From Paramecium tetraurelia (Eukaryota), in NCBI GenBank assembly GCA_000165425.1, contig CT868230.1, positions 124,001 through 188,000 on the forward strand: a stretch of DNA of 64,000 bases, written 5' to 3'. The position numbers and the translations under genes are program-made. This document shows positions 26,001 through 37,500 of the stretch, in pieces. Positions within the stretch are counted from its first letter, which is position 1; every line of letters starts with the position of its first letter. A model generated the notes under the pieces. It did no database searches, was not told where the DNA came from, and saw nothing but the letters and a program-made list of their open reading frames with translations.

Positions 26001-26292
26001 ATTAATTATTTTAATATATTCTAGTACGCAATTGTGTAGCCCAAATATGAACAGGAGTTGAATAAATCAGATGAATTACAAAGGAAGATCAGAGGTTAAG
26101 AGCAACAGTTACAAGAGTTAGAGAAAGTGAAGAAAATGTAAGAGTGTATAATTATAATATAGAGTACAAGATCAGACTGTGATGTTGACTGTACTTTTTG
26201 GAGAATGTGAAGGATTACGACAATAATGCACGGACAAAGATGGAGAGATCCAGGATCTAAGGTTTAATGTAGCCTAATTATCAGATTAGTGA
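23004..26292 (+). CDS. Long coiled-coil protein with recurrent W(K/R)xK(Y/F) motifs
   Basis: ~1050-aa code-6 ORF, heptad-rich (Q/E/L/K/N), several tiny introns. Confidence 0.75.
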
Positions 26293-26392
26293 TATAATAT
26301 AAATAATAAATAGTATTGAACTAAGATTAAATATTTCTATAATAACTTAACAATTAATTATACGAGTTTAATTTAAATTCAAAAAATAAATA

Positions 26393-28840
26393 ATGTCATA
26401 GAATGAAAATGAGATTTATAGGAGAATCAAATTACTGGGAGAAGGGTCTTTTGGAAAGGCATATTTGGTGGAAGTGCATCCAAGATGGAACTCTTTGTGT
26501 AATCAAACAAGTAGATTTAAATTAAATGAAAGAAGATGAAAGAAGAGAAACAATCAAAGAAGCAAGAATTTTAGAAGCTCTGAGACATCCTAACATAGTT
26601 AAATTTAGGGAAGTCTATAAAACAAAAAAGGGTAGGTTATGCATTGTAATGGATTATGCAGATGGTGGTGATTTAAGTAATAAAATCAAACAGACAGGAT
26701 CGTGTCTCTTTAGTGAAGTATAGATCCTTGATTGGTTCACATAAATATGTTTAGCAATTAAACATGTTCATGATAGAAAAATCATACACAGAGATTTAAA
26801 AACCTAAAATATATTTCTGACTCAAGATGGAATAATCAAACTTGGAGATTTTGGAATTGCCAGAGTTTTGAATCACACCAGAGAAAAGTGCAAGACAATT
26901 GTAGGAACTCCCTATTATTTGTCCCCTGAAATCATTGAAAGTAGGGATTACTCATTCAAAACCGATATCTGGTCTTTGGGCATTATACTGTATGAACTCT
27001 GCGCGCTCAAACCTCCATTTAATGCAGAATCCTTGCATGGATTAGCCCTTAAAATTGTTAGAGGCCAATACAACCCCATTCCTGACAAATTCTCCACCAA
27101 CATGAGGTAATTAATCTCTTCCTTGCTCCAAGTTGATCCCAATCGAAGACCCAATATTCATGAAGTCTTGAAGATGTAATTTATATTTATCAATTCAGGC
27201 CAATCATAGTCAATAGAATCAGAAGTGTCTTATCAGAAAGTATAAGGAATGCAGAGTTTTCCCATACTATTCTTCACAAACAGAACTTTGTTAATCATAA
27301 TTTGATAGTCCCATACGATACTGAGTTGAGAAGTGTATGTTCGTAGCCAAACCTTGGTAAAATTTAATAGCAATAACCATTACAATAATAATATTAATAA
27401 TAACAATAGCCAAGCAATTATTTATTGGCATTTAATGCAAGAGGCTAGCCATAAAATAATTTATTAAAACAGAAACAATTATATCAATAGCATCTACCAT
27501 AAGTAAATATCTTATTTAATTTATATTAGAACTATGACTACATATCTAAACCAACTCAACAAAATTATAATCCATATATGAATTATCAAAAATACCAATA
27601 AAACAAATAATAATAACAACAACCATAATAAATATAACCTTTATAAGTTAATAATAATAGACCTAATATCTCACCATTAAATCCATAAAGGAATGAAAAA
27701 TCACCTTATTATGATGATAGATCGCCATTAAGCAAATCACCATTTAATAAAGATGTTAGAGACAAATCTCCCTTTGAAATTTAAAGAGAATAAGTCAGAT
27801 AATAAATTAAAAGAAATGAAGAAAAATTTCAATAACTTTAAGAAAATAAAATAAAATACTTATAACCTGATAAGTATGAATTACCTAAGCTATCAAGGGA
27901 ACCATATTCATAACCATAAATCCAATATAAATATTAAAAATAATAATCTGATCCTGTGTCAGTCAAAGACCCAGTTAGATTGGAACCAATCAATAATAAT
28001 TAATAACAATAAAAGTCAGAATAATAATAATAGCAAAAAATTGATTTGCAATAAAAAATAGAGCAACAATTACAATCTCAATATCCTTCATCTTCTAGAG
28101 AACAAAAAGAATAAAGAGATAGTGTGTATCAAGCACCTCAGACTGAAAGAGTATAAGTAGCTCAATACATTTCCCAACCCCCTCCAACTCAATAATAATA
28201 ATAAGTTGATCCTATCTAAAAAACTGAATCAGTAAAACCAAGCAAACTACAATTAAAAGAAAGTCAACTAATCCTTTAAGAAATAAGAGAAATAAAAAAT
28301 GATACTAAGGATGATAGAGAAAAGATGAAATAACTAATGGAAATCAAAAGATAAAGAAATAGTAACACATAATCAGAAATCTAAGAAGTTATTAAGGAAG
28401 CATCCAAGAATTCAGACGAATAAGAAGATGAAGCATCTTAATTACTAGCAGAGTTAGAAGATATAGTTATAGCTGCTGAGGGTGGGGATGTGAAACATTC
28501 ATAAGTAATTAATGTAGGTGATGGTGATTTAATCAATATGTAACAATCAGTTAGGGAAAGTGTGGACAGAGAGGATGATGAGAGTTTGGAATAGAAATCA
28601 AATGCATCAAATGAAAACGGAGAAAGAGAAAGCTTTTAAGATGATGAAGACATCGTTTGTGAAACTCCTAAAGAATTGCTTTATCAATTACTCTTAAGAC
28701 AAATTGGTTAGGAATAATTGACCAAAGCTTTAAATAAAATATAAAATGCTTATTCCTAGGATTATGTCAATCTAATGCAAAACGGCCTAGATGAGTTGTA
28801 ATAATATAAGGCACTTATATTCATGTATGAATGCATGTGA
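26393..28840 (+). CDS. NEK1-like kinase with Q-rich tail; apparent +1 frameshift near 26472
   Basis: LGEGSFGKAYLV, CVIK, HRDLKTQNIFL, GDFGIARVL, GTPYYLSPE; the first codons are out of frame by one base with the rest. Confidence 0.85.
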
Positions 28841-28917
28841 TTTTAAATTTAATCATATTTTATATCTACAATTATCATATAAATTAATATTCATTTAAGA
28901 ATTATTACATTTAGTAT

Positions 28918-31468
28918 TCAAAAACTTATTTTTGATTCAAAATTCGATAAGATTCGACTTTCATGCATCAAAGTATCACAAAACATCTAAAATTATAAAA
29001 TTTATAAATTACCTCCAAGTTTTATATTTATTAATCTTTATCATTTAATTAATGTATATATTAATTTTTAGATTATTTACTTTAATTTTAAATTTTATTA
29101 GCTTATTGTAAAAATACTTATTAACTCTCTTTAATTTCTTATTCTTAATTCTATGCTTTTTGATTCACAATGATATCATTTAATTCATACGATGATTATT
29201 ATGATATAATATAATCGTTTTATTATTATTATTTCTCGTTTTCATCATGTACAAATGTATAAATAGAAAAATGATCAACTCTAACAATAAACTATTACTT
29301 TATTTGATCTATTTCTATCAACTCAATATTCTGCTCTTTACATTTTTATTGTAGAAATTTATGTTCAGTCTCGTAATTATCTTTGTTTATTGTGATTGGA
29401 ACCTTCAAAGTAATCAAACAGGATTTATTAAGTTTTTTATTAACTTTTGGTTTAAGATATTCATGAATTTGATCTAAATCATACACTTCGACCTTTGAAT
29501 CTTATATATCAACAATTCTATCTAAATTGATATACAATAAGTTTGTTGGAGAATCCCATCTCAATGAACCAAATTCATTAAAGATTGTAAAATCTTCAAC
29601 ATTTTTTAATTAATTAATTGTCAATTGATTGATATCTGGTAATGTGTAATATCCTTATTTTGTTAAGATGGGTCTATAAGTTTATAGGATTCTAAATGAT
29701 AGAGTTTGATGATTATCCTAATTATTATTTTCATCAATTATAAATTCACTTTTTTCAAAATAAGCTGCTTTATCACTCTTAAAGACTTGCATTTAATCTA
29801 TTTTTTGAAGTATTTTATCTTTAAAATCGATTTTTGATTTAATATCATTAAATTCTTCATTGAATGTTATAAAATTCTCACTTTCTTCGAAATAGATTTC
29901 AATTATATATTCTCTTTTAGATTTAGTTGACTTTTATGAGATTCTGCTTGTAGTAAATCCGCAATTAGATTATGATTAATGTTGAATACTAATTCTTGAG
30001 CTTTTTTAACTGTTGGCTAGATTCAGATTGCTAGAGGAGGGCATTGTTCTAAAGAGAGTGTGAGAATCATTTTTCTTTTTTGGTAACAAATTGATTTCTT
30101 ACTACTTCTTTTGTCTTTCAATTCTTTTTTTTTATTCTAGCTAATTGATTAGGTATTCTTGCTCCAAATATTTTTCTTCTTCTAATTTGTACAATTTTTC
30201 CATTTCTTAGATAGAATTATTTAATGTGGTTGTGAAATTGTTAATCATATCTACTGATTGTTTAATAAATTAAATAGGATTCATTTAATTTTGGTATTAA
30301 ATCATTTGCAAATCATTCGATAACATGTTGATAGTATTAACATTTTAAAATGGTTGAAATGGTTATTAAGGCATTTGTAATGGGTACATTTGTTGTGGTT
30401 ATTAAAATTATTATTATTAGAACATTAATTATTAAGAATTTTATTATTGTTATTATTAAAATGGTTATTACATGTTATTCATGAATTATTGTTATGGTTA
30501 CGAAAAGATTGAAAGAATGTTAGGATTATTATTATTATGATTATTATTACTTTAATTATTGAATAAGTTAGTATCATTATTGGACTAGTGTTGATTTGGA
30601 ATTTAGATTTGCAATTAGGGTTTGTTTTATTAAAATATGTTTCCAGTTTGTGATTATTATTAAGCCCAAGGGAGATTTAAATCCTTTGACTGATAGTTAT
30701 TAAATTCAGATTGAGGTTTGTTATTATTAAAAGAACTTTAATTGAAGATGTTTTATGGTTGCTGATCCTATCTAGGATTAGGATTTGAGAATATATTGAC
30801 TGAATTATTAGTGTTCATACTATTGTTTATTGGAGGGGCATTAAAAATATTTCCATATTACTACTTTTATTATTATTACTAATTATTTTAATTGTTCATT
30901 GAACTGAAAAAATTATTTTATTGTCTATTATCAGTAAGAGAGGAGGAGGCATTTGAATTAAATATATTTTGTTATTGTTAATTCTAGTTGTTAGATTCCC
31001 AAATGGAATTTGAACTTTTTTAAATGGGAAACATAGGTACATTAATGGCTAAAATAACATTTAGATTTACGTTGTCCAGCCACTTTCGAAATCAAAGAAG
31101 GATTGAATCTTTTGCATTGGATTGCATTTTGAATAGTTGATATATGGAAATCATCAATTTGTTATGCTCTAACCAAATAATAATCCTCTAATCTAATCAT
31201 TATCATTGACTATTATTGTAAGAAATGTTTACCATTTTATCATATTGAGGTTAGAAGATAATTGAAGTAGACAATACGTTTTTATCGTCCACAACTTGAA
31301 TTTTGATTTGTTCAAACTTAGCTCTATATGAACCTTGGACATCACGTTTTCTTTGTGTTCTTAAAATTAACATAAAAAATACTAAGGAATAGTCCAGGAA
31401 TTAGAATTGGATTGACTAGTTTAAAATATATTGGAACTGCCATTTCTTTGAAAGAGAGTGTTTGCCAT
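28918..31468 (-). CDS. NUP98: Nup98-family nucleoporin with NIFN repeats, GLEBS-like motif and autopeptidase domain
   Basis: STSIIFQPQYDKMSMIMIRLEDYY (GLEBS-like), NIFN/NIFS/NIFQ/NLFN repeats, KVEVYD..KPKVNQKLNKSCLITL, VRVDHFSIY. Confidence 0.85.
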
Positions 31469-31586
31469 TATTTTTGTTTAAAAATTATTTCCATTATATT
31501 GTTAATTATTAATGGTTTAAGTGAATATTGAGTAACAAAAATTAATATAATTCTGGAAATATTAATTATTATAATTTAATGATAGA

Positions 31587-32281
31587 TCAATATGAGGATT
31601 GGGATAAATTCTCATCTAAGGAAGACTTTCTTTTTCTTCCTTTCTTGTTGATATCATTAATATTCAACTTCTTGAAATTCTCTTCCTTTCTCTTCTATTT
31701 TACTAGTTCATTTTTCTTCTTTTTCTCCTATTTCATGGCCTAAAAACTTGATTCAAAATTTCTAATTTCCAACTTATTGTTTTTCTTATAGGTGTGTACT
31801 TTGTTCTAGCTCTCATCAAAAGAGACTTTCCTTTGAAAACCTTCGCTTGCAATTGAATTAGATCTCTTCCGTAGACTAGATGTCATAGATACTTAATCAA
31901 AATCTTATTAACTTTGAGTAGACCTTAATTTCAATGATTCGCCCATGTCAGCACAAGAATCTTCCTTGCTTAATGTAGGTTGTTCGTCCATTAAAGCAGC
32001 TTCCTTTCTTGGCCGCATGGGCGAATCTATATCTTTCATTTTCTCTTAGATTGTTTCTTATTGAGGCTGCGAAGGAATCTTTCTTCTTGTGTATAGATGT
32101 TAAATAACAACTAAAATGAGGGAAATCAAAATCCATGACATTGTTGATAATGTTAATTTAATATTAACAGTACCTTCATTTGCATCAAATTTTGAACTAA
32201 ACCTATTAAATAGATGAGTAAATCATACAACAACGATAATAGGACTCCTATCGTCAAAATTACTGAATGTTATTTTTCCAT
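31587..32281 (-). CDS. Hypothetical basic/charged protein
   Basis: Code-6 open frame with introns, K/E/R-rich C-terminus; no family recognised. Confidence 0.45.
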
Positions 32282-32310: not shown

Positions 32311-34485
32311 ATGAGCAGAAGAAAAACTAATACTAAGGTGGTTCTCAATGATAATGATGATGAAATCGCATAGAAAGAGCTGATGTATGCAGTAATTATA
32401 TTACTCATAATCTTAGCCTGTCATTTAGATATACACAGATAATCAATACTTGACAGAAATGCAAGTGGATTCTATAACAGGAATAATGTAAAATATAGAA
32501 ATATTTAAAACTTGGTGTCCAGAAACAAGCGCACTATCTGAATTCACAAGGTTAATATCTTAGAATTTATAATATGAGCGATTTCAAAAATAAAATGCTG
32601 TATTTAATTTAGGTATACGAATAATCCATTTTAGGTGATCAAGGAGATAAATTCTATATTATTCTGACAGGAACAGCTGCAGTCTACATCAAAAGACAGC
32701 CTCAACAAATTGAAACTGAAGAATAGGAGATCTTACCTAAAATTGAATAATATTTAGATAAAATGCAACTTAATTCGATAACAGAAATTGAATCTGACTC
32801 AAAATTCTCCTTTTTTGAAAAATTAATTAAAAAGTAAACTAAACCACTTAAATAAATTGAATCAGAATTGCTCTTATTAAATACTGGTAATTTTGATATG
32901 TATTTTACAAAATATGGAATTTGTAAATTCTAATAAATCTCTTAATTACATTCTGGACAATACTTTGGTGATATGGCATTAACTACTGATAAGCCTAGAG
33001 CTGCCAGCATTGTTACTATAACAGAACTCTAAGTACTTTCACTTAATAAAACGAATTTTAAAGTAAATTCTTTATTATCATATAGAAAATATTTGAAAAA
33101 TAAATCAAGGCATAATAAGAGAAAATAGAATATTTTTTAAAGATGTTTCCTTCAATGACTAAATTTAAAATCAGCAAATTGATAATGTATTTTTCTCAAT
33201 ACAAATATCCTCCAAATTATAAGATTTGGAAATAAAATGATATAGTAGATGGTCTGTTCTTACTGAAAGAAGGAGAAATCTAATTATAAAAAACAGTTGA
33301 TTTCCATCCTTTTCTTAAATCCGAATAAAATCAAATACCTAGTGAAACTAAAAGAGAGAAGACTTCACAAATGGATCTTATTACTGTAAAATAGAAATTC
33401 TAATAATTAGTTAGCTAATTTGACTGATGGTTGCTTTATTGGGGAAACAGACATCTTTCTCAAAAATGAAAGAAGGGATTACACAGTTAAAACAGTTACT
33501 CAATGTAATGTGTATGTCTTGCATATGGATAATTATTTGATAGTTAAAAGATAATTTCCTGAATTCATTAACCCTCTTTAATTGCTCTCTTAGAAAAATA
33601 TCAATCTATACAAGAAAAGATTGGATGAAATTGTACAGACCAAAGTTATAAGCCTCAATTTCCAAAAAAAAGAAGAATCTAATGTCATTGAAAGAAGATA
33701 CTTAAATGACATTGAAATTAATTAATAGCCTAATTTCGTTCATTAACATCAAATATCTTCTCCTATTTTAAGATCTTCGATTCATCCAAAAATGACAAAA
33801 CAGCAAATGGTTGAGTAAAATCAATCAATTGCTTTTTAACATTAAAAGAATGAGAAAATGTCTAATAAGTAAGAAGAATTCAATATGTTAAAAATGGCTG
33901 GTGATAATTTCTAAAAATGCTTATTTATTCGAGTTGAAAAATAGTTTGAGTAATTCTAACCAACAAAACCTAAGTATACATATTTTGATTAAACTTAGAG
34001 GCAAGACCCCTTTTTTTAGTAAACATCAAAAAGACATTAAAGACTTACTTAATTAAATTAAACGTAATTAGATAACATAAGAAACTACTATCAATCAATA
34101 TGAAGAATCAGATCAACATAGTCTACCATTTCTTACTTTGAGTAAAAGATAATTAAAAAATATAAATCCTTAAGTTTAATAGAAAATGGAAATTTTAAAA
34201 TAATGTTTAACTAGTCCGACTAGTTGTCATTCTAATTCAGTTTCTTAAACAATAGATTAATTTTATAAAATTAAAGCATAATAAGGATTTGTATTATGTG
34301 ATTCTCTTCATCCAATACAAGATCGAGGTCATACTCAATCAAGATTCAATAAACATTTGGCTAATGTCAAACTTACCTAAAGAAATTAAAAAACTATTTA
34401 ATAATGTTTGAATTCTCAAAAAGTATCAATTGATAATTTGGATACTAATATTTTTAGTTCTTAACCTACATTACAATACTTATGA
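32311..34485 (+). CDS. Cyclic nucleotide-binding domain protein
   Basis: GDQGDKFYIILTG, GQYFGDMAL..KPRAASI, second domain LFLLKEGEI, FIGE. Confidence 0.82.
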
Positions 34486-34525: not shown

Positions 34526-37500
34526 TCAATTTAAACAATCTTTATTATTTTGAGATTCCTCCTTTAGACACTCATTCTTAGGCTATTATATATCAATGGC
34601 TTCATTAAGGGTTCTTGTTTTAAATATATTTATACTTTTTTAAATTTTATTCTATTTACTTATTTTGTATTTCAACCTATCTTTGTATATCGAAATTGTC
34701 ATCCTGCTTTTTTTCCAATTGCTATTAATCTGCAGTTTCTTTTTCATTATCAGAACCAAAACTATTACTATAATTAGATTTATTTATTATATGATCTTTT
34801 TATTAATAATATCTATTTAACTCTTCTTTTAAATCTTGAATCTCCTTTTCTTTTTACTCTAATATTTTGAATTGATTAGAATTCAAAGTGTTCAATTCTT
34901 CAATAACTTTATTTTAATTGTTCAATTAAATTTACAAATTTGATAATTCCTAGTTAATCTTTGTTTTTGCAAATTTTTAAGTTTATTCCAATTAGATTTC
35001 CATTCGTCTAATTTTTTCATCATTTTCTTGAAGAACTTTTTGTAATTTTAATTTTTCTTTCATTATTTCTTCTTCCTCATCTGATTATTCATTAATATCA
35101 TTTTCATCAATATCAGCAAACTCTTCAAATTTGACAATATTTTAACTCTTTTTAGAGTGATTACTAATCACAGACTTATTCATTCTTTATTCTATATGCT
35201 AATGAATAATTTTTAATTCCTCTTACAAATTCTATATTTCTTAATCTTTTTAATTTATCAGTTCTTAAAATGTATGCTATTCATGAGTTGATTATTATAG
35301 AATTCCTGCCATTTTTGATTTAAATTCATATTCTTATGGTTCTGCTTGCAGCTCCTCTCTAAAAAGGGGTAAACTTTCTATATGCTTTTATGGATTAGAT
35401 ACCCTTCCAGCACCCCGGCGGCNNNNNNNNNNNNNNNNNNNNNNNNNNNNNNNNNNNNNNNNNNNNNNNNNNNNNNNNNNNNNNNNNNNNNNNNNNNNNN
35501 NNNTAAACTTTTATTTTTTTTTTTTCAAATTAAAGATTTAATTTCCAAATTATTTAATCTGCTCAATAGCTTAATCCCGACTACTCTATATTTATGATTT
35601 TTATTGCAATGCACTCTCATTCTGTTCTTTTAATTGTTATAATAATATTTAGAGCTGCTCTTCAGATTAATTTGATTCAGGCAATAATATAGTTTCTATA
35701 TGTTGACCTCTTGAAGATGTTTAAACATCAAATAAATCCATAATATCTTAATTTTGTTGAATAGAACTCTTGTTTTCAGATATGCTCTGTAATTATTTCA
35801 TAAGATTAAGTGATTTAAGCTATTCTTCTTGTAATTACAACTAAATTTGTTCCAATTTTTTTAATGCCTCCTGTAATTTTTAATTGAGCTATTTCTATTA
35901 ATTTTCATTTTCCTTTGATTCATTTTGATATTATTTTATTTTGAATTAGAGTTATTCTATTTCTTAAATTTAAGCACTTTATTATGAATCATTTAATAGG
36001 GTTGCTTTTTACTCCTACTTATCTCTTTCTATATTATTAAGTTATAGAGTTAGTCTTTATATTTGGGATTTGCTTTCAGATATCTAGATCTCCTTTTGCT
36101 TTGAATCAATTAAATATTTTTTTATTTCTTCGACCAACTTTTGATTTCTATCTATTTCTTCTTCTAATTTGTATTCCAGTTCTGATATCCTTACTCTTAG
36201 CTTCTCATTTTCGCTAAATGCACTCTCTAAATGCTTTTCAGATTACACCTATTTTTTAGTTAGCATCTTTTACTGGTTTTGCCATTCATTAGTTTGTTAT
36301 TCTTATTAATTTAAATTATTCTAAATTACCTCCTCCATTTATTTGAGTAACTCTTAATTATGCTTTTATTGCTTATCTAATTATTACTCAATCTATGCTT
36401 TTTATTATTGATATTATAATCTATCATTTTATAGGTTTGTAATCAAAGTTTTAGTTTATAATTAATTTACTTATTCTTATTTAATTTATTTCTATAATTC
36501 AAAATTATCTGCTTATAGAATTTTAATTTCCGATTATTTATCTTCATAATTCTTCTAGAGTTTATAGATTTTTTAATTCAAACTCTCTCTTTCTTAAGGC
36601 TATTATTGCAATTAAATTTACTAATTCTTTCTTTGTAATTCAACAATTTTCTACTCAAACAAATTTTATTCAGATTAATAATTATTAATCATGTTTTCTT
36701 ATGATTAATTCTATTCTATTAAATTTTAAATTGTATAATTCTGTTTATTAATTTTAGTTTATAATTATTATATTTAATCCATTTAATCTTTGAATTTATT
36801 TGCTTCATTTCTAGATTGTTTAAGTAGATTTTCTAATTCTTATTTATACCTTTATAATGTATTATAGTTTTCTTAAAATTACGTTAACTTTTAATCTTTA
36901 GTTCTTATTTATTCTTATAATCTATTAGTTTAATATTACCATTCTTATTTCAATTTATCAATTTACAGTTATTGATTTTCATTTAGTAGTTATTAATGCT
37001 TAATCAAATCCACGTTCTCAATTTGGTATTTCTCAAATTACATTTGAAAGTATTATTTCTCTTTTTATAATGTTGATAAATCCATTTGATTTTTCTCGAA
37101 ATCATTTAAAAGACTATTATTATTCTTCTTCAATAATACTATCTAGTCATTTAGATTAATTTAGCTATTGTTACTTTCTGATAATTTAGCTTTTAGTTAC
37201 TATATTTCTTCTTGTTATTAGATCTAAATATCATGATTAAATTACTTGAAGCACTTTCAATTGATTAAAGTCATTTAAATCAGATATAATTAATTCCTTT
37301 TTCTGATTTTCACCTAATAAGATGCTGATTTATTATTCCAACTATTGAATTCTTGCTTGGAATTCCCTCTTAAGTGATTATTCTTATTAATATGCAATTA
37401 ACTTTTCTTATTCAAAATTATTAATAATATATTAATGATGTTTTTTTAATTCATTAAATTGTTTCTCCAGTCCCTAATTTTAATTCATAATAAAGTCTGC

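Follow-up and report, generated by a model that had tools for sequence, protein, structure and literature searches.

A Nup98-family gene of Paramecium tetraurelia with NIF-type repeats in place of GLFG and a derived short tail

The 64,000-nucleotide stretch of the Paramecium tetraurelia genome analysed here (assembly GCA_000165425.1, contig CT868230.1, positions 124,001 to 188,000; hereafter the window, within which all coordinates are given) carries on its minus strand a gene of the Nup98 family of nucleoporins, in which phenylalanine-X (FX) repeats of the NIF type fully replace GLFG repeats. The gene occupies positions 28918–31468 and comprises five exons, with 818 codons followed by a TGA stop (2457 nucleotides, nt) under the ciliate code, in which TAA and TAG are read as glutamine; its start at 31468 and its stop at 28918 are exactly those proposed by an earlier, sequence-only reading of this DNA. 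The repeat signature, N-I-F-N/Q/S, matches that reported for the micronucleus (MIC)-specific Nup98s of Tetrahymena (PMC5450191). We propose that the gene encodes a NIF-type Nup98-family pore protein with a derived short tail and, most likely, a micronuclear or MIC-biased location, and we assign a probability of about 0.5 to this proposal as a whole.

Family membership and relatives

The encoded protein contains a sole Pfam domain, the Nup98-96 S59 autopeptidase domain (PF04096; 29256–29657, minus strand), which is matched over profile positions 2–147 of 148 with an expectation value (E) of 1.3e-22 and a score of 81 bits (cut-off 28.4). The sequence also matches 15 solved Nup98 chains, with E values of 2.4e-8 to 8.3e-6. 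An intact HF/S autocleavage motif had been reported at 29265–29273 from the sequence, and coordinate arithmetic indeed places there, on the minus strand and within the PF04096 match, the HFS of the predicted self-cleavage site (residues 710–712, with F711|S712 as the scissile bond). In alignments this HFS falls on the HF[ST] motif of autopeptidase domains, the human one included; the match of the autopeptidase profile to human Nup98 runs through HFS, and both H and F are nearly invariant in a 12-sequence alignment of the domain. On these matches, the gene is a member of the Nup98 family with an intact predicted HFS site.

Searched exhaustively with HMMER, the autopeptidase domain yielded 730 proteins at E values up to 0.001, the best 150 of which were examined. 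The top match among these is a P. octaurelia protein (P0003; 1242 amino acids, aa) that is 87% identical, followed by a P. sonneborni paralog (P0004; 1172 aa) that is 37% identical, and a search with P0003 added proteins of P. pentaurelia (P0183; 1242 aa) and P. sonneborni (P0184; 1272 aa). Over the autopeptidase domain the gene is 92–95% identical to its orthologs, P0003, P0183 and P0184. The three orthologs and the paralog P0004 are all of the NIF type (6–11 N[IL]F, 0 GLFG), and all of them continue after HFS with an extension of about 500 aa.

In a tree of 135 autopeptidase domains, with no Tetrahymena sequence among them, the four orthologs form one clade with a Shimodaira–Hasegawa-like approximate likelihood-ratio (SH-aLRT) support of 100, and P0004 joins them at 98. 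As far as this sample shows, the two Paramecium families appear to stem from a duplication within the Paramecium lineage. No Tetrahymena protein was present in the word-indexed homolog searches or among the best 150 of the 730 autopeptidase matches. Tree paths from the window's domain measure 0.076 to P. sonneborni, 0.11 to P. pentaurelia and 0.19 to P. octaurelia, which is the sister species of P. tetraurelia; the greater closeness to P. sonneborni and P. pentaurelia may reflect different duplicates having been kept in different species.

NIF-type repeats and flanking segments

Composition and motif counts delimit an FX-repeat domain at residues 120–360 (241 aa; 30321–31043, minus strand), which contains 18 phenylalanines (about one per 13 residues), six N[IL]F[NQS] motifs and no FG. 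N and Q together make up 48.5% of this domain, and charged residues 5.4%, versus 19–30% in the remaining parts of the protein. The residue following F is N (six times), Q (six) or S (three), otherwise P, F or M, and never G. All six motifs quoted in the sequence-only reading are found in the minus-strand translation where it had put them, namely QNIFNSN (F codon 30962–30960), GNIFNAP (30845–30843), VNIFSNP (30791–30789), QNIFNQ (30746–30744), GNIFQQ (30635–30633) and TNLFNN (30563–30561), and a seventh, SSNIFQT (F codon 31426–31424), lies in exon 1. The whole protein has seven N[IL]F, of which six are NIF[NQS], with exact NIFN occurring three times. The claim that GLFG is missing holds as well (0 GLFG), the lone FG of the protein being inside the autopeptidase domain.

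This enrichment exceeds chance: none of 20,000 composition-preserving shuffles of the 241-aa repeat region attains the observed NIF counts (5 NIF and 6 N[IL]F[NQS], versus shuffled means of 0.22 and 0.22). Among the other open reading frames of the window that reach 200 aa, 28 of the 1521 phenylalanines belong to an N[IL]F. In the alignment of the four aurelia-species sequences, five of the six repeat-region motifs coincide in position and read NIF in every sequence, with spacers that vary. The Pfam Nucleoporin_FG model has no match in the protein; the FX repeats found in its place are spaced and composed as is usual for FG domains.

The protein resembles canonical Nup98, Nup145N, Nup116 and Nup100 in its C-terminal autopeptidase family, its HF[ST] and its charge-poor, disordered repeats with regularly spaced F. 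It differs from canonical GLFG nucleoporins in a repeat domain devoid of GLFG and FG, and in a charged, probably helical segment that precedes the autopeptidase domain. This segment (residues 361–470, including …IQEMEKLYKLEEEKYLEQEYLINQLEQKKRIERQKK…; 29991–30320, minus strand) has the composition of a probable helix or coiled coil. It is conserved in both Paramecium families, and a model of the paralog draws the corresponding part as a single long helix, with a predicted local distance difference test score (pLDDT) under 50. To our knowledge, canonical Nup98 has no such charged segment.

A possible further likeness to canonical Nup98 is an N-terminal segment with a RLEDY motif resembling the Rae1/Gle2-binding site (GSYRAKFEQIK ... 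QYDKMSMIMIRLEDYY; residues 38–82; 31177–31334, minus strand, across intron 2). RLEDYY and at least 20 further residues of this GLEBS-like segment are invariant in all five of the five Paramecium sequences. Neither the orthologs nor the paralog match the Pfam GLEBS family (PF21240) at E values up to 10. A GLEBS profile built from nine Pfam-positive segments puts PQYDKM..RLEDY in register, at best-domain E values of 0.078–3.9, which are not significant. The GLEBS-like motif is the weak point of the sequence-only reading: its Y-x10-RLEDY is correctly placed, but the likeness has a single RLEDY motif as its basis and is significant with neither Pfam nor the profile.

Origin of the short tail

The protein ends 107 aa after the F|S bond (28921–29267, minus strand) and contains no Nup96, in agreement with the short tail of about 100 aa lacking Nup96 that had been noticed earlier. 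Searches with tblastn and alignments show that the gene matches its orthologs to about residue 779 and then over ortholog residues 1189–1228. The tail is accordingly a remnant of an ancestral C-terminal extension, residues 712–779 corresponding to its head and residues 780–818 to its end. P0183 residues 780–1188, about 409 codons, are absent, and both flanks of the missing stretch are kept in frame. The junction of this in-frame deletion lies approximately at 29061–29066 (minus strand), a position uncertain by a few codons. A one-base frame change after NFESK then leads to the present stop at 28918. The last 16 ancestral codons persist as an out-of-frame relic at 28875–28925 on the minus strand (VFEYQMQQFLNEYQFI, then a stop), which aligns, in the exon 4 frame, with the end ...NVFEYQMLQILDEYYFI of the orthologs.

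Because the orthologs and P0004 continue for about 500 aa past HFS, and because the flanks are in frame here, the short tail is a derived deletion in P. tetraurelia. The extension is common to both paralog families and has invariant columns across them, such as EWWL; it is thus ancestral, and its absence here a loss. Taken together, the alignments show the short tail to be what a recent in-frame loss of about 409 codons, combined with a terminal frameshift, has left of an ancestral gene with about 530 aa after the cleavage site. The suggestion of a MicNup98A-type determinant conserved in this lineage fails on this point: the conserved Paramecium architecture is the fused one, with the extension present in all three orthologs and in P0004.

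The present product is like T. thermophila MicNup98A in belonging to the Nup98 family, in carrying N-I-F-N/Q/S for GLFG and in lacking Nup96, and the ancestral Paramecium gene, a NIF-type Nup98 followed by an extension of about 500 aa in the position of Nup96, is like the MicNup98B-Nup96 unit, in which TtNup96 is expressed together with MicNup98B (PMC5450191). The P. tetraurelia gene differs from MicNup98A in having fewer NIF motifs (7) and in that the absence of the downstream domain is a recent loss, not a shared architecture. It differs from the MicNup98B-Nup96 unit in that the Paramecium extension holds no recognisable Nup96 and has been deleted in the P. tetraurelia gene. On balance, the ancestral Paramecium gene looks more like the MicNup98B-Nup96 arrangement than like MicNup98A. 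A short peptide after F|S in place of Nup96 is also found in the human short Nup98, which is made by alternative splicing, whereas the short form of P. tetraurelia is the product of a genomic deletion. A Nup98-only form can arise by a single deletion, the fused form being the ancestral one in Paramecium.

Nature of the lost extension

In the orthologs and P0004 the extension sits directly after HFS, which is the position of Nup96 in Nup98-Nup96 precursors. Canonical Nup98-Nup96 matches have 650–1050 residues after the autopeptidase domain, versus about 500 in the Paramecium orthologs. The Nup96 family PF12110, present in 15 of the 32 long matches scanned, has no match in the Paramecium extensions, and a PDB profile search with the extension returned no Nup96 chain. 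Comparisons of the extension with 15 canonical and 8 short Nup96 regions by hhalign gave probabilities of 0.5%, 4.8% and 1.3%. In hmmsearch the extension did no better than shuffled sequence, its score being equalled or exceeded by 20 to 926 of about 1000 shuffles. Of 15 other Pfam-negative extensions, 7 are detected by the canonical Nup96-region profile (E 6e-14 or better), against 0 of 4 Paramecium extensions.

The top match in the ESM Atlas is to Nup96 clusters at only 0.76, under the tool's level for a trustworthy lead, and a local LxNALFG[ND] resemblance of the extension to one Nup96-like protein is an anecdote. An AlphaFold model of the whole of P0004, from a 4-sequence alignment, has a mean pLDDT of 31.9 and is unusable; that it draws the extension as helices carries little weight. 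The extension is best described as a domain of an unrecognised family in the position of Nup96.

A eukaryote known from metagenome records (P0006/P0154) has a Nup98-like protein with five N[IL]F[NQSA] and 0 GLFG, the extension of which is recognised by the canonical Nup96-region profile (E 1e-25). Fusion of a NIF-type Nup98 to a recognisable Nup96 is thus found outside Paramecium as well.

Gene structure and transcription

The window is AT-rich (GC content 0.22–0.35). Most of the gene falls in a minus-strand open frame at 28968–31091, which encodes 707 aa under the ciliate code with 87 TAA/TAG codons read as glutamine. Over their shared part, the gene product is 100% identical to a public P. 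tetraurelia protein (P0002, 'unnamed protein product (macronuclear)', 794 aa). The five minus-strand exons (31468–31383, 31359–31233, 31209–31071, 31048–29013 and 28986–28918) were placed from the sequence and are separated by GT..AG introns. Intron 1 (31360–31382, 23 nt, GT..AG) has a junction that fits the contiguous WTIPQTQ(K/R)KRD of the orthologs, and the junctions of intron 2 (31210–31232, 23 nt) and intron 3 (31049–31070, 22 nt) are consistent with both P0002 and the orthologs. No spliced reads cover introns 1–3 at the available RNA depth, and their placement is by ortholog alignment only. Intron 4 (28987–29012, 26 nt, GT..AG) is absent from an RNA contig described below. That this 26-nt element might be an internal eliminated sequence was considered and rejected, as it has GT..AG ends, is present in macronuclear (MAC) DNA and is absent from the RNA contig.

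Exon 1 (MANTLFQRNGSSNIFQ...; 31383–31468, minus strand) is missing from the public P0002 model, which has introns 2–4 as here and starts at an ATG inside intron 1. It is indicated by tblastn with the three orthologs, which matches residues 1–29 at 79–86% identity, by the orthologs themselves, which all start MSNTLFQRN..NIFQ, and by RNA read depth, which extends into the bin that holds exon 1 (31432–31525). The resulting 818-aa model is consistent with the newer annotations of the three sibling species.

The region 28800–31600 is well represented in public sequencing, 19 runs from 10 studies containing 0.79–0.99 of its sampled words. A 2226-nt contig from an RNA run (X17) covers 28800–30279 and omits only the 26 letters 28987–29012, with no other differences, which shows that intron 4 is spliced and that the transcript continues past the junction of the deletion and into the relic tail. 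Three 2026 runs supply raw oligo-dT RNA reads at low depth (at most 9 per bin), and the first mates of these reads lie on the plus strand, as expected for RNA from the minus strand. These data show minus-strand transcription of the gene and removal of its last intron. Four RNA reads (X22) have two substitutions relative to the window, A>G at 31320 and T>C at 31335, and diverge at 31300, still coding for QVVDD. The probable source of these variant reads is a close paralog (ohnolog) that the same organism expresses and that none of the protein searches returned.

Proposed location and alternative readings

The best-supported mechanism for the difference between germline and somatic nuclei in one cytoplasm is a pore composition specific to each nucleus, which has been shown only in Tetrahymena. 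Four Tetrahymena Nup98 paralogs were reportedly defined in a 2009 Current Biology paper. In Tetrahymena, NIFN-type Nup98s are MIC-specific and GLFG marks the MAC (PMC5450191). Judged by repeat type alone, a micronuclear or MIC-biased location would be the most likely one for the P. tetraurelia protein, at roughly even odds. The autopeptidase domain would dock the protein at the pore and would cut the F711|S712 bond, setting free the vestigial tail of 107 aa. A Rae1/Gle2 homolog may be the ligand of the N-terminal RLEDY segment, and the NIF-type repeat domain would form part of the permeability barrier, with altered selectivity for transport receptors. No description of Paramecium Nup98 paralogs was found in the literature searched, and the earlier Tetrahymena Nup98 literature may already mention them. 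With a conserved NIF-type Nup98, Paramecium joins Tetrahymena as a genetically tractable organism for asking whether the repeat code is ancestral to the group.

Several observations weigh against the proposal. Tetrahymena MicNup98s have more NIF motifs than the 6–7 present here, the GLEBS similarity is not significant, and no similarity between the extension and Nup96 can be detected. A copy heading to loss would also fit the internal deletion, the terminal frameshift and the read depth of at most 9. Both Paramecium families among the best 150 of the 730 autopeptidase matches are of the NIF type, with no GLFG-type one; should Paramecium have no others, NIF repeats could not serve as the mark of a single nucleus.

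This last point leads to a reading in which the gene encodes a general Nup98 that is not nucleus-specific, NIF/FX being simply the cohesive Nup98 repeat of Paramecium and the protein residing in the pores of both nuclei, or of the MAC. We consider this possible, though on the unlikely side. The two autopeptidase-bearing Paramecium families retrieved are mutual closest relatives among the 135 rows of the tree (SH-aLRT 98) as well as both being NIF-type. Only P0003 and P0004 show Paramecium-like composition among the best 150 matches, neither has GLFG, and no GLFG-rich representative of such composition, hence no GLFG-type Paramecium Nup98, occurs among them. Atypical FN, FQ and FS motifs, moreover, are found in both MAC- and MIC-specific Tetrahymena nucleoporins (PMC5450191). 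The 150 matches are, however, only the best of 730, and the Tetrahymena Nup98s were likewise missed, so that a GLFG paralog could easily have been overlooked. In the one ciliate tested, Tetrahymena, NIFN versus GLFG does separate MIC from MAC (PMC5450191).

It is doubtful that Paramecium is devoid of any GLFG-type Nup98, with a complement made up of two old NIF-type families that each carry an extension of about 500 aa unrecognisable as Nup96. If it were so, the GLFG/NIFN code by which Tetrahymena tells MAC from MIC would not be the general ciliate solution, and this locus would show how a single in-frame deletion turns a gene of the Nup98-Nup96 type into a MicNup98A-type, Nup98-only paralog.

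It is improbable that the gene is a redundant duplicate, already without its C-terminal domain and on the way to becoming a pseudogene, whose function is supplied by a second copy. Such decay would account for the deletion of about 409 codons, for the frameshift that removes about 15 codons from the ancestral end and for the low depth of raw reads, and the four X22 reads suggest that an expressed close paralog is available. Yet the 2.4-kb frame is intact over four correctly placed introns, the autopeptidase domain has stayed 92–95% identical to that of the orthologs, conservation extends to the NIF motifs and RLEDYY, the deletion preserves the reading frame and the transcript is spliced. The downstream half is, besides, dispensable for Nup98 elsewhere, the human short Nup98 isoform being an example.

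It is highly improbable that the short tail stems from an error of assembly or annotation, or that the missing segment is retained in the germline and deleted only during development of the MAC: although the junction lies within TA-rich sequence and Paramecium removes germline DNA at TA sites, the 19 runs from 10 studies (at least 0.79 of sampled words) and the RNA contig that crosses the junction without other differences exclude an assembly artefact, no loose ends at the junction are reported from the sequencing runs, and nothing positive supports the germline-only idea.

Neighbouring genes

The genes around the Nup98 gene are unrelated to it. Upstream of its start lie a small charged frame (31590–32222), a cyclic-nucleotide-binding protein (32454–33155) and, further out, long coiled-coil proteins. 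A minus-strand frame at 34605–37256 is interrupted by an assembly gap at about 35400–35500, whose unknown bases give 28 X in a coiled-coil-like translation. On the other side, a plus-strand protein-kinase gene (26211–27302; Pkinase, E 4.6e-64) is overlapped at the 3′ end of its frame by a Q-rich plus-strand frame (27164–28840, 558 aa, no Pfam family), and a small intron may link the two frames into a single gene. The Q-rich frame converges on the Nup98 gene, the two stops being separated by 77 bases (28841–28917), and the X17 contig spans the 3′ ends of both.

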